Positions 3,991 through 18,221 of a stretch of 32,000 nt of DNA are shown here, one piece after another (within the stretch, counting starts at the first letter, position 1; the number at the start of each line of letters is the position of its first letter). The DNA is from Candidatus Heimdallarchaeota archaeon B3_Heim (lineage in GTDB: Archaea > Asgardarchaeota > Heimdallarchaeia > Hodarchaeales > Hodarchaeaceae): the NCBI GenBank assembly GCA_003144275.1, contig NJBF01000011.1, forward strand, positions 61,042-93,041, read 5' to 3'. The notes beneath the pieces are model-generated. The model was not told the origin of the DNA. It ran no database searches and was given only the letters and a program-made list of their open reading frames with translations. The translations under genes were made by a program, and so were the position numbers.

Positions 3991-4122
3991 ATGAAATGGG
4001 AATGCATGATATGCGGTTATGTCTATGATGAAGACGCAGAGGGAGTTAAATTTGAAGACCTCCCTGATGACTGGGTATGTCCAGAGTGTGGCGCTCCTAA
4101 AGAAGATTTTGAACAAATCTAA
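3991..4122 (+). CDS. rub: Rubredoxin, 43 aa (absent from the ORF track)
   Basis: My translation: [43 protein letters not shown]. Two CxxCG knuckles plus [11 protein letters not shown]. Confidence 0.96.
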
Positions 4123-4171
4123 TCGTCACCCATTTTCTTTTTTTTCTCCTCCGCTTTGTGAGGTGTATTCT

Positions 4172-5377
4172 ATGGTATGTATTGAAATCACTCCTAATAT
4201 TTATTGGAATGGATTAAATGATCGAACGAGTGATCTTTTCGAGGGGATATGGCCGATCACCAAAGAAGGTGTCTCCTATAACTCCTATATCATCGCTGAT
4301 GAAAAGGTTGCATTGATTGACCTAGTTAAAGGGATTAAAACAGATGATTTTCTAAGTCAGATTGAAGAGGTTGTGGATCCTGCAACCGTAGATTATGTGA
4401 TTATTAATCACATGGAGCCCGATCATACGGGTATGATTAAGACGATGCAAAAAATAGCTCCACAGGTAACATTTGTGGGCTCAGAACGAACTAAGCAGAT
4501 GTTGGATAAATTCTATCACTTAAACACAAATTTTAAGGTTGTAAAAACAGGAGATACAATTGAACTTGGAACGCATATTCTAGAATTTTATGATATACCG
4601 TTTGTCCATTGGCCAGAGACCATTGCCACCTATGAACGAACTAGTAAAATTCTCTTCCCGTGTGATGCATTTGGAGGGTATGGCGCATTAGGCGGATCAA
4701 TATTTGCTGATGAGTATGAGGACTTAGACTTCTATAAGGAGGAAGCATTACGGTACTATTCCAATATCATCGCAAAATTTAGTCGTTTCACTCTGAAGGC
4801 AATTAATTTGCTGAAAGAATTAGATATTCGAATTATCGCCCCTTCACATGGCCTTATCTGGCGAAATCCCAAAGAAATTATAGACCTTTATGAGCGATGG
4901 GCACGTTATGGAACTGAACCTGAATCTGCAGAAGAAGGCGTAACCTTCCTTTACGCGTCAATGTATGGGAATACGGAGAAACTTATGGGAGCTGTAGCTC
5001 AAGGGTTATCTCAAGAAGGAATCCCCGTAAAAATTTTCGACGTAGCCCGAACACATGTCAGCTATATACTACCATACCTGTGGAAGTATCGAGGAGTGGT
5101 CATTGGTTCACCAACGTATGAAGCAAAGTTGTTTCCGCCAATGGCTTATGTTTTGGACATTGCAACATCAAAACGTGTAATAAATAAGGAAGTCATCCGC
5201 TTCGGTAGTTACGGCTGGTCAGGTGGAGCTCAACGTGACCTTGAACCGCGGTTGGATAAGCTAAAATGGAATCTCCTTGAATTTTTCGAATGGCAGGGAG
5301 GTCCAACGCTAGAAGATTTCCAAAAGGGGGAAGAATTAGGTAAACGGTTTGCCCAACATCTGAAAAATTTCAATTAG
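4172..5377 (+). CDS. fprA: Flavodiiron protein (FprA, class A); start corrected from 4019
   Basis: HMEPDH, FVHWPE, CDAFG and PSHG di-iron ligands; flavodoxin domain SMYGNTEK and FGSYGWSGG. GAGGTG RBS lies just upstream of ATG 4172. The track's longer N-terminus overlaps rubredoxin in another frame. Confidence 0.95.
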   Translation: MVCIEITPNIYWNGLNDRTSDLFEGIWPITKEGVSYNSYIIADEKVALIDLVKGIKTDDFLSQIEEVVDPATVDYVIINHMEPDHTGMIKTMQKIAPQVTFVGSERTKQMLDKFYHLNTNFKVVKTGDTIELGTHILEFYDIPFVHWPETIATYERTSKILFPCDAFGGYGALGGSIFADEYEDLDFYKEEALRYYSNIIAKFSRFTLKAINLLKELDIRIIAPSHGLIWRNPKEIIDLYERWARYGTEPESAEEGVTFLYASMYGNTEKLMGAVAQGLSQEGIPVKIFDVARTHVSYILPYLWKYRGVVIGSPTYEAKLFPPMAYVLDIATSKRVINKEVIRFGSYGWSGGAQRDLEPRLDKLKWNLLEFFEWQGGPTLEDFQKGEELGKRFAQHLKNFN

Positions 5378-5487: not shown

Positions 5488-6465
5488 GTGAAATATCGTC
5501 AAATGGGTCGCACTGGGTTAAAAATAAGTGAAATTAGTCTAGGTGCCTGGCTAACCTACGGAGGAACCGTAGAAGAACTGGGTACCCAAGCATGTATTAC
5601 TAAAGCTGTTGAGCTCGGCATAAACTTCATAGATATCGCTGATGTTTATGCTCGTGGGAAAGCGGAAGAAGTTGTGGGAAAAGTCATTACCAAGGAGAAT
5701 TATGATCGGAAAAATCTGGTTGTAAGTAGTAAAGTGTTCTGGCCAATGTCAGATGGGATTAATGACCGGGGACTCTCGCGAAAGCATATTATGGAAAGTA
5801 TAGATCGCTCACTAGATCGAATAGGGACAGATTATCTTGATATCTATTTTGCACATCGGTTTGATTATCACACTAAGCTCGAAGAGACACTGCGTGCCAT
5901 GTCTGATCTGATAGATCAAGGCCTAGTCCATTATTGGGGTACATCTGTCTGGCCAGCAGTCCAACTAGAACGTGCAGTTTGGATGGCTAAAGATCTCGGA
6001 CTACATCCTCCCGTTGTTGAACAACCGCGTTACAACATGTTAGACCGATTTATTGAACGAGATGTCATGGACACCTGTGATCGGAATGGGATTGGGATAG
6101 TATGCTGGTCACCTTTAGCCCAAGGGGTGTTAACTGGAAAATATAATGATGGAGTGCCTGAAAATAGTCGAGCTACAACTAGTAACTTCATTCAGCGTGA
6201 TTTAACGGAAGAAAATTTATCCAAAGTCCGTCAATTGAAAGATATAGCCACAAGTAAGGAAATAACTGTCGGTCAGCTTGCCCTTGCGTGGATTCTTCGT
6301 AGAAGTGAAATATCATGTGCTATCACTGGAGCCACTTCTGAAGCCCATGTTCTTTCTAATGTTACGGCTTCTGATATAACCTTAGATAACCAAACTCTTG
6401 AAGAAATAGAAGGCATACTGAACAATAAACCAAAACAACATCCAGTCTATCTCCCACCATGGTAA
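5488..6465 (+). CDS. Aldo/keto reductase (Kv-beta/AKR6-like group)
   Basis: GRTGLKISEISLGAWLTYG, IDIADVYARGKAE, SKVFW, WSPLAQGVLTGKY; GTG start. Confidence 0.93.
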   Translation: MKYRQMGRTGLKISEISLGAWLTYGGTVEELGTQACITKAVELGINFIDIADVYARGKAEEVVGKVITKENYDRKNLVVSSKVFWPMSDGINDRGLSRKHIMESIDRSLDRIGTDYLDIYFAHRFDYHTKLEETLRAMSDLIDQGLVHYWGTSVWPAVQLERAVWMAKDLGLHPPVVEQPRYNMLDRFIERDVMDTCDRNGIGIVCWSPLAQGVLTGKYNDGVPENSRATTSNFIQRDLTEENLSKVRQLKDIATSKEITVGQLALAWILRRSEISCAITGATSEAHVLSNVTASDITLDNQTLEEIEGILNNKPKQHPVYLPPW

Positions 6466-6613: not shown

Positions 6614-6781
6614 TTAAGCGGCGGATCGATTAACTTTCTCTGTGGATTTGACTGTTGGTCTGAGATTCTGGGTATATAATACACCATTATAATTCAGGTA
6701 TTCTAAGGTGAGTCGAAGGCGAGTCTCTTGATGGATTAAAGCTAGCCGCTCGTCGGAGTTCAGCTTTGTTGTTGGAGTCAT
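6614..6781 (-). CDS. Small protein A (55 aa) of a YL[NK]YxG-motif paralog trio
   Basis: MTPTTKLNSDERLALIHQETRLRLTLEYLNYNGVLYTQNLRPTVKSTEKVNRSAA*. GAGGA RBS at 6787-6791 and TATAAAAA at 6816-6823. Core similar to the two neighbouring small ORFs. Confidence 0.8.
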   Translation of the reverse strand: MTPTTKLNSDERLALIHQETRLRLTLEYLNYNGVLYTQNLRPTVKSTEKVNRSAA

Positions 6782-6882
6782 TTAGTTCCTCGAGATATTA
6801 CCATTCTCAAACTAATTTTTATATTCCCATAACATTTCCAGAATATAACTAGTTCTGGGATCTCTCCTTCAAAGTCTCTATT

Positions 6883-6912
6883 AAAAAAAGAGAAAAGGAG
6901 AAAAGGGAAAAA
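6883..6912 (-). terminator. Pyrimidine/T-rich tract ending the small protein B transcript
   Basis: Minus strand reads tttttcccttttctccttttctcttttttt, typical of archaeal intrinsic terminators. Confidence 0.55.
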
Positions 6913-7002
6913 TTGGCCGTCGCTAGTCTTCTTGACCCGACTCAAATTATCAAAAGGTGTTATTTCAGATTTGTGATGTTAATATGAAGACAAACTGCAA
7001 TG

Positions 7003-7158
7003 TTAATATGCAGATGAACCAATAATCTTCAGTGAACCTTTCTGATCCTCCGTACTCGGTTCAGCACGAAGGTTCGTGAATACGGGTCCAGTGTAATTGA
7101 GATACTCGATAGTTGACTGTAGTCGTTCTTGTGAAGGTCGTAGTAAGGGACGTGCCAT
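7003..7158 (-). CDS. Small protein B (51 aa) of the YL[NK]YxG-motif trio
   Basis: MARPLLRPSQERLQSTIEYLNYTGPVFTNLRAEPSTEDQKGSLKIIGSSAY*. TTAAATA box about 24-30 nt upstream (leaderless geometry). Confidence 0.8.
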   Translation of the reverse strand: MARPLLRPSQERLQSTIEYLNYTGPVFTNLRAEPSTEDQKGSLKIIGSSAY

Positions 7159-7169
7159 ACTAGAAATGT

Positions 7170-7201
7170 TGTTCTAGATACTATTTAACTGTTCTAGATA
7201 C
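7170..7201 (-). promoter_or_regulatory. TATA box flanked by 12-bp direct repeats (putative operator) upstream of small protein B
   Basis: TGTTCTAGATAC at 7170-7181 and 7190-7201 (20-bp period, TCTAGA palindromic core), separated by tatttaac (GTTAAATA on the minus strand). Confidence 0.65.
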
Positions 7202-7233
7202 CTAGGTAGTACGTGGGGAGGAAATTATTGGTG

Positions 7234-7392
7234 TTATACCAAAGGAAAGAGAGGAGAGGAGGATATTTCGGGAGAAATTGGTGGAATTTCTTCAATTCTT
7301 CGTAAATAAAGAGGTCCTTGGTATTTTAGATAGGCGAGTACTTCATTTAGATTACTTAGATTTATTGATTCTGTATCAATCATTTTCATCAT
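7234..7392 (-). CDS. Small protein C (up to 52 aa) of the YL[NK]YxG-motif trio
   Basis: MMKMIDTESINLSNLNEVLAYLKYQGPLYLRRIEEIPPISPEISSSPLFPLV*. TATATAAA at 7411-7418. Start could be 7392, 7389 or 7383. Confidence 0.72.
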   Translation of the reverse strand: MMKMIDTESINLSNLNEVLAYLKYQGPLYLRRIEEIPPISPEISSSPLFPLV

Positions 7393-7595
7393 CCATGATC
7401 CTGTATTTGGTTTATATATTTAGAATCCCAAAAAAATACTTAGAGGGGTTTATCTATTTGAATAATGTGAAAGTTAGTATAAAAACTCGTAGAGGGAGGT
7501 TTTTCTATCCTAATTAGTGATTATTCATCCAATGAAGGACGATCTGTAGAAATCTCCAAGGATTATCTCGACAAAAAAAAGGAGAAGGAAATTAA

Positions 7596-8843
7596 TTAGC
7601 TATTACTTAGGTATTCCCTGATTGCAATAGCTCCCGCAGCCCCTTCACCAGCTGCTGCCACAGCTTGTTTCACTGATCCGAAGCGACAATCCCCCGCTGC
7701 AAAAATCCCTTGGACTGAGGATTGCTGTTGAGACGTGGTGATAAAACCTTGGGAATCAAGATCAACTCCCTTTAGGAACTTTGTATTGGGTGATAATCCT
7801 ACGAAAACAAAAATTCCATCTGGATGATAATCTTTTACTTCTCCAGTTTCCGTATGCTTAACTCTAACAGCCTCAAGACTGTCCTCACCTAGTAGTTCAA
7901 CAACTTCAGAATTTGCCCAGACTTCTATGCCTGATCGATCTCTTACTTTTTCCTGTAAAACAGGAGAAGCACGGGGTTCATTCCCACGGACGAGAATTGT
8001 CACATGATCAGCAAATTTCTCTTTCAGAAAAAGAGATTCTTCAAAAGCACTATTACCACCACCGATTACAAAAATCTTCTTATTTTTGTAGAAGAATCCG
8101 TCACAGGTGGCACAGTAATGTATACTTACTCCCAAAAGTGCGTCAGAACCCGGAACCACAAGCTGACGATAATTAGAACCAGTAGCGACAAGAACAGCTG
8201 AGCATGTAAACTCCTGAGACTCAGTTTTTGCGACTTTATATTGACATTCATCAAAGGAAGCATTAGGATGACAGGTACCCACGTTCAAGACTTTTTGAGG
8301 GGAGAGAATCTCAACCCCAAACCGTTCGGCCTGTTTTTTAACATTCTCTGCAAATTCTGCGCCAGTAATTCCTTCTGGAAATCCTGGAAAATTATCCAAT
8401 CGATTTGTTATGAAGGCCTGTCCTCCAACCGTTGATTGTTCTATTACTAGTACATCATACCCATCTCGAGCAAGATAAATCGCTGCGGTAAGGCCAGCTG
8501 GTCCTGCTCCTATGATAACCGTATTATAGAATGATTTTTTTGCTCTTTGTGCTAACCCTAAGAAATCAGCTAGTTCAAAATTACTGGGTTCTACGAATAA
8601 TTTTCGTTCTCCATCCTTTATTACTTCAACAGCGGGTATTTTTCGTTTTTTAGTCCCAAAAATTGTTTCATTCGTGTCATACACGAATTGTAAAGCTTTT
8701 TTCCCTTCAGCGTCTGGTTTTTCAATGTCAAACCAGCCATAGTGAATTCGCTGTTCACCTAAATATTTCTTTGTACGTCTACAATCACTACACCAGTTAG
8801 CTCCGTAAACATTAACTATTATTTGTTCTTCTGACATATTCAA
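7596..8843 (-). CDS. trxB: Glutaredoxin/NrdH-like domain fused to thioredoxin reductase
   Basis: N-terminal YGANWCSDC redoxin domain, then GAGPAGL, NFPGFPEGITG, active-site HYCATCDG, GGGNSAFEE, GIFAAGD. Confidence 0.92.
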   Translation of the reverse strand: MNMSEEQIIVNVYGANWCSDCRRTKKYLGEQRIHYGWFDIEKPDAEGKKALQFVYDTNETIFGTKKRKIPAVEVIKDGERKLFVEPSNFELADFLGLAQRAKKSFYNTVIIGAGPAGLTAAIYLARDGYDVLVIEQSTVGGQAFITNRLDNFPGFPEGITGAEFAENVKKQAERFGVEILSPQKVLNVGTCHPNASFDECQYKVAKTESQEFTCSAVLVATGSNYRQLVVPGSDALLGVSIHYCATCDGFFYKNKKIFVIGGGNSAFEESLFLKEKFADHVTILVRGNEPRASPVLQEKVRDRSGIEVWANSEVVELLGEDSLEAVRVKHTETGEVKDYHPDGIFVFVGLSPNTKFLKGVDLDSQGFITTSQQQSSVQGIFAAGDCRFGSVKQAVAAAGEGAAGAIAIREYLSNS

Positions 8844-10220: not shown

Positions 10221-12035
10221 CTATTGTTCACTCTCATCGTATTCTATGGGGTCTAGCTCATGAGTCGTTGTAGATGATAATTGTTCTTTTCTCAATTGAA
10301 GCTTAAAGGGGAGAAGAGTAAAACAGAGAATGACAATTAAAAATACTACAAACATGAACAAAGGAGCCATAAAATTCCAGTCAAACACAAAGAATACTGA
10401 ACGGGCGAAATTAAGCTCTCCTCCAGTAGTAATATTGTAGCCCCGTGCTAATATTCCAAGGAACGACCCATATTCCATTAAGCCGACACTAACTAGAAAG
10501 CTTAACCCAAAAGATAGTCTGAATCTTCTTAGATAATTTTTTGATTTGTCCTGTCTATATTCCAATCCTAGAAGCATACCAAGGGGAATATTAATGAAAA
10601 CGAGTAGTAATAACATACTCAGAGGTAACCAAAGTGATTGGTCTTCAAATATTGTGGCTGTTAATAAAATTGCATTTCCTATGTATAGAAAAAACCCAGT
10701 AACTATCGAGATAGGGAGGAGATTAGAAAGGTGATTATGTCCTCTAGGAAGCATTTTTATGACGACTACACCTAGTATCGCAGCTAATCCACTTATTCCA
10801 CCAACTATACAGATCAAGCGGACAGACGCAAGTATCCGACTGAGAATATCCTGACCTGCCCAATTGGTTCCAAAGATATGAGCACCTCCTGGCTCTGCAT
10901 ATGCAGGAAAACCATTTGAAAAATCATCATTTATCGGATCAAAAGGAGTAAGAAATGAGATTAGTATAATTACTCCAAGAAAACCCAAAAAACCAATGGT
11001 TAGAATTCTTTCACTTGGGTAACGTTTGAAATCTGTTCTAATTTGATTTGCAATCTCATTAAGTGTATTAGGTGATGTTTCTACATTATTTCCTTTATTT
11101 AATGGAAGAGGAATGAGGCTGATAATGATAAATCCAACAAGAATCATAAAACCATAGTTATATATGGAAGCGAATACAACGGGGATATTCATCAGCAATA
11201 AACTTGAGTAGAAGTACCGTCCTAGGCCTGGCCAACTGTAAATCGTTTCAAAAATAAAATCTCCGAGGAAAATTGATAGATAAGTCGCTTTTAGGGTGGT
11301 TCGAATACTCAACTTGGAAGCAATGGTTATTAATCCGATAATGATTGAAAAAAAGCTCATACTTAGTACAGGTAGAAAATTACGAGCAGCTGGTGAAGCT
11401 TCACTTCTCCATCCTGGAAGAATACGTACTCCTTCCCAGATTAATCCTGGATCAACTACTGATAGTAAGACAAGAGGTATTGAAATAAGTAAAATAGGGC
11501 TCAGTAAACCAGCTATCCTTAGTATTCCATCTAACCTTCTGGATTTATAAATGTTTAAATCTTCTAATACTCTGATTACAATAAATGGAGAAAGGATGAT
11601 TATTGTAAGAGTTAAGGCTCCACTTAAAATTACTTCTGTGGCACCTGAGAGTGATGAAAGCTCTTCTGCAATGGCTCCGCTAGTCATCCAGTTCGTACCA
11701 AAATCTGCACTTAAATATTTGGTTAAGAGATAAGGAAATGAGAAGGGGAATCTTGGAAGATTTAAACTTTCACGAAGGGTATTGTACTGATCTAATAGTG
11801 GAATCAACTCTACAGAAGATAACTTTGGTCTAATTGTTCGAGGATCAACTTCTCCACCAAATATTAGTACTAACAAGTCTCCAACCAAAAGGTTATAGAT
11901 GAAAAAAAGTACTGTAAATGCAATTAGGAATCCAAGAATTGATGTTAATATAGAATAACCAGCATTAATCGCATAAGGCTTTGAATAAATCCTAAATTTC
12001 TCATATAGCTCATTTTGTGTAGTTTTTTCTTCCAT
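10221..12035 (-). CDS. Fused DppB/OppB-DppC/OppC-like ABC permease, divergent
   Basis: DppB-like segments (SADFGTNW; FETIYSWPGLGRYF) followed by DppC-like segments (HIFGTNWAGQDILSRIL; EYGSFLG); many TM helices; GAGGGG RBS before ATG 12035. Confidence 0.75.
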   Translation of the reverse strand: MEEKTTQNELYEKFRIYSKPYAINAGYSILTSILGFLIAFTVLFFIYNLLVGDLLVLIFGGEVDPRTIRPKLSSVELIPLLDQYNTLRESLNLPRFPFSFPYLLTKYLSADFGTNWMTSGAIAEELSSLSGATEVILSGALTLTIIILSPFIVIRVLEDLNIYKSRRLDGILRIAGLLSPILLISIPLVLLSVVDPGLIWEGVRILPGWRSEASPAARNFLPVLSMSFFSIIIGLITIASKLSIRTTLKATYLSIFLGDFIFETIYSWPGLGRYFYSSLLLMNIPVVFASIYNYGFMILVGFIIISLIPLPLNKGNNVETSPNTLNEIANQIRTDFKRYPSERILTIGFLGFLGVIILISFLTPFDPINDDFSNGFPAYAEPGGAHIFGTNWAGQDILSRILASVRLICIVGGISGLAAILGVVVIKMLPRGHNHLSNLLPISIVTGFFLYIGNAILLTATIFEDQSLWLPLSMLLLLVFINIPLGMLLGLEYRQDKSKNYLRRFRLSFGLSFLVSVGLMEYGSFLGILARGYNITTGGELNFARSVFFVFDWNFMAPLFMFVVFLIVILCFTLLPFKLQLRKEQLSSTTTHELDPIEYDESEQ

Positions 12036-12984: not shown

Positions 12985-13458
12985 TTATTTTTTTAAAAGG
13001 GCTCGGGCTGCTGTGATATAGACATCTAAATTTTGCAAAGTCTCCTGTTGAAAATTACGAATTGTTTCAGCAGTTTTTGTGTTATCATAGATAGCGCTGG
13101 CTTGTTGTAGGATTTTGATGTCTTTGATGAGTTTAGTAATATCTTTCTTTAATTTCTCATCTTTCTCGAATGTCATCCCTCTTACTCTGACTAATAAGGC
13201 CAAAGCATCAGTAAATTGTAGATCGTAAACTAAAATTAGCGCCCGAATGAATAGGCTTTGTGAAATGACCAACTGGGCATTATAATCAGCATTTCTGTCA
13301 ATACGATTTAGGAACTGTATTGCAGTCTGAACTTGTCCTTCTTCTATGTATGCTTTCGCCAACATAAAGTTCCTAAAGTCACGTAGCTCCATAAAATTTT
13401 GGAGCGCGTTTTCTATACGTTGTAATGAAAGCCTTATTTCACCGTCAAGTAAAGCCAT
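12985..13458 (-). CDS. Hypothetical all-helical (TPR-like) protein
   Basis: Repeating amphipathic helices (AKAYIEEGQVQTAIQFL; ALILVYDLQFTDALALL); no enzyme motif. Confidence 0.6.
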   Translation of the reverse strand: MALLDGEIRLSLQRIENALQNFMELRDFRNFMLAKAYIEEGQVQTAIQFLNRIDRNADYNAQLVISQSLFIRALILVYDLQFTDALALLVRVRGMTFEKDEKLKKDITKLIKDIKILQQASAIYDNTKTAETIRNFQQETLQNLDVYITAARALLKK

Positions 13459-15185: not shown

Positions 15186-18100
15186 TTATTTACCTGATAA
15201 TGTTTTCCAGTTAGAGCCTTGCTCTGTGATCCATGTCTTATTCACAAACAGGTGCATTTTATACCAAATGGTTAAGCCAACAATTTCATCAACACATGCT
15301 AAATCGGGGTTTGTCGTAAGCCATTTATAGGCTTCAGGATACATTTCAGCATACGGTGGTACACCTGTTCCTTTCTCTGAATCCCACCAGTGTCCCGTAT
15401 GATTCACTATAACCCAAAAGTGTATATCGGGTAAATGGTTTGTGAAATAGTCATTCACATCAGAAGTTGAATTTGAAGAGAAAGGATAATTACCTGTTTC
15501 TTTGACTTCGTATTCTAGATAATATCGAAGGGCAAATTGAGTACCTCCCTCATTTATTGCCCATGTACTATAATTATAATCTCCACCATGGTTATTGATA
15601 TATATCGCCATCTCCTGGTATCGAAGATCGAATATTTGATTGTAATGGACATTAGTAGAGACATTTACTAACATCCCTGACATAGCGAGGGCAAGAATTA
15701 TTGTAAGTTGAGGTTTAATCTTTGGTTTCAACCAGTACAACCCAACAATCAACAATATCAGTCCAACGAAAGTAGCTAGGGGGGCTCCAAACTCCATTAC
15801 TTCTCCGATCCATGAAAAATCTAATTCGAATAGCATGTCTAGGAAATCATAGACTATATAGTCGTATAATCGATACAACCCACCCCCTCCCCTAAACCAT
15901 GCATCGATAAAGAATTTGTATGCAAACCCAGCAGTAATGATTCCAGGAAACGTTTTCAGTACATGAAAGCAAAGAAAAATGAATGGGATTAAATAAATGG
16001 CGCCGACAAAGAGGTTTCTGAACAAAGAATTTAGATTTCCATTACCCAAAAAAGCGGTGAGGGGAACGTAAACAAATGTAAATCCGATTTCTAAGAAAAA
16101 ATATCCTCCAGCTAGCCCTTTTTCAACATTATCAACAGCTAGTAATCGCATTTTCTCATATGAATAGATAAACTCAAAACCTTTGGCTGCAATAGCGAGA
16201 TAAGGGAGTACAAGGGGAATATAGTAATAATTCAACTGAAACATTGCGGGGAAGAAAACAAGAGGAATGACAAGTAACCAAGTGATCAGGGCAGAACCTA
16301 ATGCGGGATTACGACGTTCTGAAAAGAAAAATGCCCAGAGTCCAATTAGGAAGAATGGTAGCATGACAACCAACACGTAATCGTTTATTGCACCCCCTAA
16401 ACTATCAGCTAAATTATACTTGGTTCCAGACGTGTAACGCCACCCAATGTAATAATCAAAAAATAAAAAGGTATATGTAACGACATCAGGCTTATTAGGA
16501 TCACCAGCAAGCTCTCCTGGGGTCCGTACCACCCATGGAAAGTTCACAAGATTAGTATCGATATATTGTATCCAGGCAATAAAGGGATAGAAGCTGAGAA
16601 TAATGACAATGAGGGTGATTCCAATAAACAGGATATGGGATGAGAATATTGACTGCTCTGTTTGAGAGCGAATTCTAGCTTTAAGATTGTAAAATTTTAT
16701 GAGCTTATTCTTAAGATGTGGATAGTAGGACAGTAAGGGAATTAGTAATAAGGAGATAGCAACACCCATTAACGTTATTGATGAAGCATTTCGATCAAAA
16801 ACAAGTCCAAGCAGAAGTAATCCAACAAACCAAAACATCAACCAAATCCCCATAATAATTAGGGGAAAACTGTCTATTAACTCGTAAATAAAACGAATGA
16901 AGGCTCTATCGGAGGAAATAAAATCTAATAACAACCCAAATACAATTAATGCGAGAATGATTGTAACAATCGATCCTAATAATGCTCCGATGAGTTCTAA
17001 TAATGCTAGAATGAAGACCTCGTTATTGAGTGCTTCTAGATTTTCTAGTGTTTCTTCTGATAGAAAGAACAATATTCCTTTAATTATGGACATATCATTC
17101 GAACTTAAAGCCGTTGCAAATTGTTTGAAAGCATCCTCTAATCGATTATAAAAAAGAGATACGATGATATTCCCTGCAAATGCTGCCAATACGCTCGTAA
17201 GTCCAGTGAAAAATAACACAAGGTAGTTTCCTTCAACGAACTCATTTTTCCAAAACCGAAGAAACACAGCAAAACATGTAGAAGCGCTCACGATAGCTAT
17301 TATTAGACCAGCGACAAGAAGTTGATTGTAAATAACAGCAATAATAAATGAGATGACCGATGCAAGTAAGAATACAAAATACGGGAAAAGATTGGCATAG
17401 GTTTGTTCTGAGGAAGAAGAACGTTCCTCATTGTCGGAGAAAGAAAGAGAAAATGATTCACGAATCTCATATAGAGCAATTTTTAATTGAGAGAAATCAA
17501 CATGCCGCTCTAAATATCTGAAAACCAAATAGATGGCTATTGATGGTGCAATTAATACCCCTTGCCATGCTTTCGTCATGACATTTAGTACATTAAGTAT
17601 TCCTGTTAGTATGATCAATAAATAGCCTTTTTTCAGATTGTTATCAACAAATATCGCATCAATGGCACGAATTCCTGCTAAAAAAACTATAGATCCCATG
17701 AAAATAACAAAGGGGTCGATATATGCAGTTCGAGAATAGAAATTTAGAAATGAGGCTAGTGCAACCAGAAGCCCTGCTATAGCATGTGCGCTCTTAGTTT
17801 CTTTTTGATGACTGAACAAGAGGTATATCACTACCGCAAGACCAGCCCCACCTATAGCATTCATGCCATTTGCCCCAAAAGTGCTTTTTCCAAAGATATT
17901 CATGAGGAGCGCGCCAAAAATGAAAGCAAAAGGAGGTTTATCAAATAATTGAAGGGTTTCATTATTCCCCCTATAATATAAAGGTAAGAAAGGATCTGAT
18001 AACCCGTCGGCTATTCGTGAAGCAATGGAAACAAACCAACCTTCATCCCACATGTCAATAGACGAAGTATAAACTATCTTTAACCAAAAGGCTAAAAGAC

Positions 18101-18221
18101 CTACAATCAGTAATAAACGATATCGTACAAAGTAGTCCCATAGTCTTACCGCTATCTTTTCTAACATTTGATTCTTCGGTGATATTGGGGGTGGGTTTTG
18201 TTCCTCTTCTTGGGCAGTCAT
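15186..18221 (-). CDS. Large GT-C fold (GT39/ArnT/PMT-like) membrane glycosyltransferase
   Basis: DMWDEGWF acidic loop after TM1, FDKPPFAF, RTAYIDPF, MTKAWQG, NYYYIPLVLPYLAI; 1011 aa with many TM helices. Confidence 0.8.
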   Translation of the reverse strand: MTAQEEEQNPPPISPKNQMLEKIAVRLWDYFVRYRLLLIVGLLAFWLKIVYTSSIDMWDEGWFVSIASRIADGLSDPFLPLYYRGNNETLQLFDKPPFAFIFGALLMNIFGKSTFGANGMNAIGGAGLAVVIYLLFSHQKETKSAHAIAGLLVALASFLNFYSRTAYIDPFVIFMGSIVFLAGIRAIDAIFVDNNLKKGYLLIILTGILNVLNVMTKAWQGVLIAPSIAIYLVFRYLERHVDFSQLKIALYEIRESFSLSFSDNEERSSSSEQTYANLFPYFVFLLASVISFIIAVIYNQLLVAGLIIAIVSASTCFAVFLRFWKNEFVEGNYLVLFFTGLTSVLAAFAGNIIVSLFYNRLEDAFKQFATALSSNDMSIIKGILFFLSEETLENLEALNNEVFILALLELIGALLGSIVTIILALIVFGLLLDFISSDRAFIRFIYELIDSFPLIIMGIWLMFWFVGLLLLGLVFDRNASSITLMGVAISLLLIPLLSYYPHLKNKLIKFYNLKARIRSQTEQSIFSSHILFIGITLIVIILSFYPFIAWIQYIDTNLVNFPWVVRTPGELAGDPNKPDVVTYTFLFFDYYIGWRYTSGTKYNLADSLGGAINDYVLVVMLPFFLIGLWAFFFSERRNPALGSALITWLLVIPLVFFPAMFQLNYYYIPLVLPYLAIAAKGFEFIYSYEKMRLLAVDNVEKGLAGGYFFLEIGFTFVYVPLTAFLGNGNLNSLFRNLFVGAIYLIPFIFLCFHVLKTFPGIITAGFAYKFFIDAWFRGGGGLYRLYDYIVYDFLDMLFELDFSWIGEVMEFGAPLATFVGLILLIVGLYWLKPKIKPQLTIILALAMSGMLVNVSTNVHYNQIFDLRYQEMAIYINNHGGDYNYSTWAINEGGTQFALRYYLEYEVKETGNYPFSSNSTSDVNDYFTNHLPDIHFWVIVNHTGHWWDSEKGTGVPPYAEMYPEAYKWLTTNPDLACVDEIVGLTIWYKMHLFVNKTWITEQGSNWKTLSGK

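Follow-up and report, generated by a model that had tools for sequence, protein, structure and literature searches.

In the window, a 32,000-nucleotide stretch of a contig from the assembly of Candidatus Heimdallarchaeota archaeon B3_Heim, an aldo/keto reductase gene (5488 to 6465, plus strand) and a glutaredoxin-thioredoxin-reductase-like gene (7596 to 8843, minus strand), both assigned by Pfam, lie 1,130 bp apart. Rfam and tRNA scans of the window were both empty. The gap is occupied by three minus-strand open reading frames (ORFs) of 51 to 55 amino acids (aa), here called A, B, and C; the ORF list bears out the coordinates and lengths given in an earlier note on this DNA:

6614-6781, minus strand: micro-protein A, 55 aa, with a longer N-terminal helix via the insert DERLALIHQET, the core LEYLNYNGVLY, and a tail ending in RSAA
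7003-7158, minus strand: micro-protein B, 51 aa, with the core IEYLNYTGPVF, an acidic tail, and the C terminus SSAY
7234-7392, minus strand: micro-protein C, 52 aa, with the core LAYLKYQGPLY and a Pro/Ser-rich tail, on the thymidylate-kinase side of the cluster

The cores of the three proteins align without gaps, and those of A and B continue with T(Q)NLR, exactly as the earlier note had quoted them. The pattern [YF]L[NKQ][YF]xG[PVS][LIV] has four occurrences in the six-frame translation of the 3.9-Mb genome, three of them within the gap, and the recurrence of the core in A, B, and C is far beyond chance. The same six-frame search found the motif in no larger protein of this genome, and there is thus no sign of host-motif mimicry. 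The family sequences show neither a signal peptide nor a hydrophobic segment.

A, B, and C are almost certainly genuine protein-coding genes. Compared with orthologs from four sister species (Nei-Gojobori), the three ORFs have dN/dS values of 0.05 to 0.24 at dS 0.5 to 1.9; the range for A alone, against its orthologs in genomes G013, G018, G003, and G020, is likewise 0.05 to 0.24, and that for C is 0.07 to 0.14. Resolved by region in the sister-species orthologs, dN/dS falls to 0.02 for the core, against 0.24 for the N terminus and 0.19 for the tail. Variable sites number 41, 21, and 92 at codon positions 1, 2, and 3, respectively (chi-square p ~5e-12). In a whole-spacer alignment of four species, the fraction of invariant columns is 0.63 to 0.80 in the ORFs versus 0 to 0.47 in the spacers, where the promoters form smaller islands of conservation. 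The earlier note's view that these are real, translated genes conserved at the amino acid level is upheld by the low dN/dS and the third-position excess, and the dN/dS check that it had proposed returned values far under 1.

Homologs were sought with a profile of the three sequences in 61 related genomes, comprising 21 of the genus and 40 of neighboring families. All 21 genus genomes gave matches, usually as open frames of about 50 to 60 aa, two or three in tandem, while the 40 genomes of neighboring families yielded no match below an E value of 0.002 in this profile search, the best ones being broken by stop codons. With a 32-sequence profile, two to five members were found in 20 of the 21 other genus genomes, the exception being an 80%-complete assembly. 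The ORFs stay open with the same motif in about 20 genomes of the genus, and A matches the family profile at an E value of 5e-13. The profile search of Asgard genomes suggested in the earlier note thus finds the ORFs retained across the genus.

The 32-sequence family alignment also served as the query for searches of protein sets. A word-indexed set of 5.8 billion proteins contained 45 clusters of 45 to 81 aa, which carry only the name "hypothetical protein" of Candidatus Hodarchaeales or Promethearchaeota metagenome-assembled genomes (MAGs). An exhaustive HMMER scan of 1.84 billion representative proteins returned 44 matches, all of 37 to 97 aa; no fusion to a known domain occurs among them. 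A word search with the same alignment directed at longer, fused forms found none, a result that is weak by itself but with which the exhaustive scan concurs. Because some members are named "hypothetical protein" in public Hodarchaeales MAG annotations, the earlier description of the ORFs as unannotated holds for the annotation track of the window alone and not for all databases.

No family in Pfam, NCBIfam, PADLOC, or PHROGs matched at or near its curated cutoff; a PTS_EIIB match of 13 bits against a cutoff of 27, covering only 7 residues, was dismissed as chance. A profile search of the PDB gave nothing even at an E value of 10, the ESM Atlas look-alikes of B included no usable match, and viral contigs searched with back-translated EYLNYNGP gave none. 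The failure of the earlier note to recognize a family is therefore matched by the Pfam, NCBIfam, PADLOC, PHROGs, and PDB profile searches, and a literature search found no description of the family. The YLNY family, a name coined here, is a new and previously undescribed family, known so far from one Hodarchaeales genus only; in kind, it is a lineage-restricted small-protein family.

These data also bear on whether the conservation could come from an RNA, from regulatory DNA, or from the remains of a decayed longer gene. The small size of the ORFs, and nothing else, speaks for such an origin, whose probability is negligible: the Rfam search of the window is empty, third codon positions vary in excess and dN/dS lies at 0.02 to 0.24, the frames are open in about 20 genomes, neither the fused-form search nor the exhaustive scan found a longer homolog, and start, stop, and promoter are separate for each ORF. 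Taken together, the selection data and the missing longer homolog rule out noncoding DNA or gene debris. Fragmentation of one degraded longer gene, in particular, was rejected with dN/dS well below 1 and no protein longer than 97 aa among the 44 scan matches; the earlier note had named such fragments as a refutation.

Each of the three ORFs is preceded, at a promoter-like distance, by its own TATA-like box, as the earlier note had reported, and these boxes are conserved among sister species. The candidate expression elements, all on the minus strand, are as follows:

6814-6825, minus strand: TATA-like box of A, AATATAAAAATT, kept in loci L023-L026, a conservation island in the spacer
6787-6791, minus strand: Shine-Dalgarno sequence of A, GAGGA
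7171-7212, minus strand: promoter of B, with the TATA-like GTTAAATA (7182-7189) between two GTATCTAGAAC repeats
7195-7212, minus strand: upstream element of B, GTAYTAC-N4-GTATCW, conserved genus-wide
7411-7422, minus strand: TATA-like box of C, TAAATATATAAA, about 20 to 30 nt ahead of the ATG
~6883-6913, minus strand: T-rich, terminator-like tract of B, about 90 nt past the B stop, with the conserved 3′ element AAGTCGGGTCAAGAAGACT ahead of it, kept in loci L023-L026

The short distance between the TATA-like box of C and its ATG implies a very short leader or none. GAGGA-type Shine-Dalgarno sequences are also found on B-type genes of other species. The sequence GTAYTAC-N4-(G)TATCAC stands directly 5′ of the B-type TATA box in at least 10 species, and the operator-like element occurs upstream of B-type genes in loci L025-L038. 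When the genome of the window was searched for the B operator, six strict matches were found, none of the others at a promoter-like site, and no regulon emerged. Of the T-rich tracts that the earlier note had placed after A and B, the one after B is conserved, but the one after A is weak here, though clear in the sister locus L024 (T8 just past the stop). In most species, 40 to 80 nt past the B-type stop, TTCCTCAC is followed by a T-run (loci L027-L040), a combination that could be a terminator with its own upstream element; the lineage of the window has AAGTCGGGTCAAGAAGACT and the T-rich tract in its place. From this arrangement, we infer that A, B, and C are separately transcribed.

The sequencing runs on record that contain the locus include no RNA run; the DNA runs are marine-sediment and cold-seep metagenomes. 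One 219-nt contig covers positions 6914 to 7132, that is, most of B and its 3′ region, and comes from a run labeled metatranscriptomic but flagged "probably DNA." Since contigs cannot show transcript ends, it is counted as a weak hint of expression of B.

The family core reads L-x3-[IL]-x-[YF]-L-N-Y-x-G-P-[LIV]-[FY]. Residue frequencies, counted over 92 distinct cores, are as follows:

Position -6: L, 99%
Position -2: I/L, 96%
Position 0: Y/F, 88%
Position +1: L, 100%
Position +2: N, 82%
Position +3: Y, 95%
Position +5: G, 99%
Position +6: P, 72%
Position +7: L/I/V, 99%
Position +8: F/Y, 87%

The structural reading comes from one AlphaFold2 model, that of B with the family alignment (mean pLDDT 68). 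In it, a single helix at residues 10 to 20 is followed by a stretch that is nonhelical and confidently placed; mean pLDDT is 91 for residues 11 to 20 and 84 for residues 21 to 30 and falls below 50 in the tail, which is predicted to be disordered. The N-Y-x-G-P segment of the model looks like a helix C-cap and turn, and the [LIV]-[FY] pair that follows could pack back onto the helix. The family alignment, the model, and the tally of cores agree with the earlier proposal that A, B, and C form a single paralogous family whose core is conserved and whose flanks are divergent and disordered. A visual comparison of the core with the PIP box, MIM1, UIM, LIR, clathrin box, and HbYX motifs led to the rejection of each, on residues or spacing.

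Two paralog lineages can be distinguished at the main locus, and both are old. The distal gene lineage, made up of the B type and an A-like form with a longer helix, ends in S-A-[F/Y/A]; B belongs to a lineage with an S-A-[F/Y] end throughout the genus, and 42 members have a [SA]-A-[FYAS] C-terminal end. In the kinase-proximal lineage (C type), the core runs on as F-[IV]-[RN]-I-P-S-D in most species. The S-A-[F/Y]-ended and "FIRxPSD" types coexist in most genomes searched, and in the lineage of the window, A-like and B-like copies of the distal gene are both present.

Members also occur away from the main locus. Solitary ones lie at loci L028, L035, and L039. A dispersed subtype, which in two species carries a C-terminal, zinc-ribbon-like CxxC...CxxC end, lies at the following positions:

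L033, 8627-8929, minus strand: dispersed subtype
L041, 6531-6869, minus strand: dispersed subtype
L035, 8521-8727, plus strand: dispersed subtype

The closed genome G009 keeps the YLNY part open, but its ribbon part has decayed: the cysteines are lost, and a stop codon comes before it. The genome of the window has a fourth member of 79 aa with the core SYLNYSGPI (contig C45, 2447 to 2683, plus strand; L043:2447-2683). The C-terminal half of this long form is aromatic-rich and highly conserved, with about 90% identity among three species; the form is present in 8 of the 21 genus genomes, and its AlphaFold2 model (mean pLDDT 56) is unusable.

Across the genus, the main locus opens with an aldo/keto reductase or, in its place, a PKD-domain protein, followed in order by two or three YLNY genes, a divergently transcribed thymidylate kinase, a 157-aa tetratricopeptide repeat (TPR)-like protein, and a protein of about 1,000 aa without a known family. 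The reductase, the kinase, and the TPR-like protein are the constant neighbors. The Grx-TrxR fusion, an acyl-CoA dehydrogenase, and a 604-aa gene stand between the cluster and the thymidylate kinase only in the sublineage of the window, and HtpG and a flavodiiron-like gene adjoin the reductase only in that sublineage and one further species. Among the genus loci, the gene neighborhood reveals no consistent functional partner. In the window, the 1,011-aa protein (15186 to 18221, minus strand) and the 604-aa protein (10221 to 12035, minus strand) have no Pfam family; the former, syntenic across the genus, has no relative found in the PDB.

The earlier note had set the genes inside a redox/chaperone block. 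Pfam does place in the window two thioredoxin-reductase-like genes, HtpG, a flavodiiron-like ODP-flavodoxin protein, and the aldo/keto reductase, but outside the sublineage of the window, neither HtpG nor the thioredoxin reductases border the cluster. Checked for conservation of the neighborhood, the aldo/keto reductase is a frequent neighbor genus-wide, whereas the other redox and chaperone genes are lineage-specific. The flavodiiron-like protein (4019 to 5377, plus strand) combines an ODP metallo-beta-lactamase fold with a flavodoxin, and the thioredoxin-reductase-like protein at 7596 to 8843 (minus strand) has an N-terminal, glutaredoxin-like CxxC extension; with HtpG and a second thioredoxin reductase (739 to 1731), they form an oxidative-stress gene cluster. 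The C45 gene for the 79-aa member lies directly downstream of a desulfoferrodoxin gene and a rubredoxin-reductase-like gene. All four members of this genome are thus located beside thioredoxin-reductase, flavodiiron, superoxide-reductase, or aldo/keto-reductase genes. We regard the redox link of the YLNY genes as a lead, not a finding.

The reading that we prefer, and to which we give an even chance, is that A, B, and C are partner-docking micro-proteins that combine a shared module with paralog-specific tails. The near-invariant 15-residue module, the constrained disordered flanks, the divergence of the paralogs in their tails, and the separate promoters fit such a docking role. The three genes, each with its own transcript, would encode cytoplasmic micro-proteins built from a short variable N terminus, a module of about 20 residues, and a flexible, acidic, Ser/Thr/Pro-rich tail. 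In the module, L-x3-[IL]-x-[YF]-L would be the amphipathic helix and N-Y-x-G-P the turn at its end, after which [LIV]-[FY] could fold back. Docking would bury the hydrophobic face (L-6, I-2, Y0, L+1, Y+3, the hydrophobic residue at +7, and F+8) on a common partner or on a sister paralog, and the tails, which differ by paralog lineage, would give each paralog its own output. C-terminal tags are read by PDZ domains, TPR domains, and the tag recognition of proteases; by analogy, the S-A-[F/Y/A]-COOH end of the A/B lineage looks like a recognition tag for peptide-binding grooves and might be a second anchoring point or a tag that affects stability. The paralogs would be regulated separately, B through the conserved operator-like repeat at its TATA box. 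Several observations weigh against this assignment: the motif recurs in no larger protein of this genome, the gene neighborhood offers no consistent functional partner, the structural reading comes from a single model of mean pLDDT 68, and a conserved N-terminal part joined to a variable C-terminal part also fits a precursor with leader and core. No partner emerged from the analysis, either for docking or for the competition over one partner that the earlier note had proposed.

The hydrophobic face, as judged from the conservation of the core, seems too large for a 20-residue monomer, and at least two paralog lineages are kept together in most genomes searched. Both points would suit a self-associating pair or trio, in which the paralogs join via the amphipathic helix, and the resulting small hetero-oligomer would be the unit that functions, such as a regulator or a structural adaptor. 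The single members at loci L028, L035, and L039 argue against this arrangement, which we consider unlikely.

If the micro-proteins instead dock on a partner, the 157-aa TPR-like protein (12985 to 13458, minus strand) is a reasonable candidate because it is syntenic, found only in the genus, and TPR-like. TPR domains clamp C-terminal peptides, and the protein might clamp either the module or the S-A-[F/Y] C terminus. Its gene lies 1 to 6 kb from the YLNY pair in every syntenic locus, and the protein was found in 17 of 21 genus genomes and 0 of 40 others, although this restriction, obtained with a single-sequence query, may reflect fast divergence only. Its TPR character is drawn from weak Pfam matches, atlas features, and structure, together with a PDB profile match to a kinesin-light-chain-like TPR at an E value of 9e-8. 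However, synteny within a genus is expected by common descent alone, and the dispersed YLNY members are not beside a TPR gene; we rate the pairing as quite improbable. When the TPR-like protein and B, each supplied as an alignment, were co-folded, the score was 0.00, a "no answer" that counts neither for nor against. The protein matches no Pfam family at threshold and is always beside thymidylate kinase near the YLNY pair.

Hodarchaeales are widely discussed as one of the archaeal groups most closely related to eukaryotes, and, to our knowledge, the genes specific to this lineage are almost wholly uncharacterized; conserved genes in these genomes are missed by gene callers with length cutoffs. 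The near-invariant 15-residue core, the several paralogs per genome, the strong purifying selection, and the separate promoters make for an unusually clean family and thus a tractable entry for a partner screen with a synthetic peptide, which the clean motif, the paralog structure, and the host lineage make worthwhile. Should the module prove to dock on a conserved hub, regulation by linear motifs would have an example in archaea; otherwise, YLNY is one more orphan small-protein family. As a long shot, the module could be a new autonomous peptide-docking mini-fold that tunes one hub, perhaps linked to oxidative stress here, or else the family could be the first dispersed-precursor class of ribosomally synthesized and post-translationally modified peptides (RiPPs) of Asgard archaea.

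Several known systems resemble the module in part. In the Trp-cage, the C-terminal mini-fold of exendin-4, a short helix and a Gly-Pro turn are followed by hydrophobic residues that fold back to meet an aromatic residue in the helix. The predicted YLNY helix likewise ends in a Gly-Pro turn, after which hydrophobic residues could fold back, and the exendin segment, which we take to be IEWLKNGGP, resembles the YLNY stretch IEYLNYNGP. The likeness is a structural analogy only, with no homology detectable in the PDB profile search, which was empty at an E value of 10. YLNY has Tyr in place of Trp and no poly-Pro tail and is archaeal and cytoplasmic, whereas exendin is a secreted animal peptide.

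Asgard archaea have actin, and the eukaryotic WH2 and beta-thymosin peptides bind actin through sequences whose defining motif is LKK[TV]. YLNY shares with them an amphipathic helix, a short conserved linear motif, a disordered tail, and occurrence as small proteins or tandem copies. Membership in this group was rejected, as LKK[TV] is missing and positions +2 to +8 read N-Y-x-G-P-hydrophobic-F in the 92 cores. Among regulatory micro-proteins, the small protein sP26 of Methanosarcina reportedly acts on glutamine synthetase. YLNY proteins are similar to this type in being about 50 aa long, cytoplasmic, lineage-restricted, and under their own promoters and in probably acting by binding; they have no sequence relation to sP26, and they differ in forming a multi-paralog family with one invariant module.

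The remaining comparison is with RiPPs, which the earlier note had named as an alternative. The helix and YLNYxGP would here be a leader for a maturase with a RiPP recognition element (RRE) encoded elsewhere, with modification falling on a core formed by the variable Ser/Thr-rich tail. Such precursors would account for the conserved N-terminal part, the variable C-terminal part, and the several tandem, precursor-like genes, and Y-x-G-P-x-[FY] recalls the Y-x-x-P-x-L of lasso leaders. Lasso-peptide leaders carry a YxxPxL...T motif that is bound by PqqD-like RRE domains; YLNY matches them in its Y-x-x-P-x-hydrophobic element, in its small, tandemly duplicated, precursor-sized genes, and in the presence of RRE-type domains in the genome. 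Three PqqD-like domains were found, on contigs C31, C54, and C96, and thus only on contigs other than that of the window.

The likeness ends at the remainder of the motif and at the genes that should accompany it. Tested against the leader pattern YxxPxLx3Gx5T and a core that begins with G/A/S/C, only Y-x-x-P-x-[FY] fits; the Gly/Thr spacing is missing, the Thr of B comes one residue early, and the would-be core of B lacks the ring-forming Asp/Glu at positions 7 to 9. The earlier note had seen no maturase in the window, and indeed none of the lasso set (an RRE/PqqD-like protein, a transglutaminase-like protease, and an Asn-synthetase-like cyclase) was found there or at about 20 related loci. 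The genes next to the family at these genus loci likewise include no peptidase or exporter, and no cyclase, protease, or RRE adjoins the YLNY loci. The lasso-type protease domain (PF13471) and YcaO were not found in this 94%-complete genome. The tails, almost without Cys, are conserved within paralog lineages (dN/dS 0.19), and selection is strongest on the supposed leader (0.02), which suits a leader and a docking module equally. Given that no maturase lies near any locus, the precursor reading is the weaker one, and we hold it to be very unlikely. Thiazole/oxazole or thioamide RiPPs were rejected separately, there being no YcaO in the genome and no Cys in the tails.

On contig C31 (25379 to 31920), a stand-alone PqqD-like protein of 113 aa is encoded near an apparent TldD/PmbA-like pair and ABC-transporter ATPases, calls made from N-terminal sequence only; this region may be an unrelated peptide-processing cluster.
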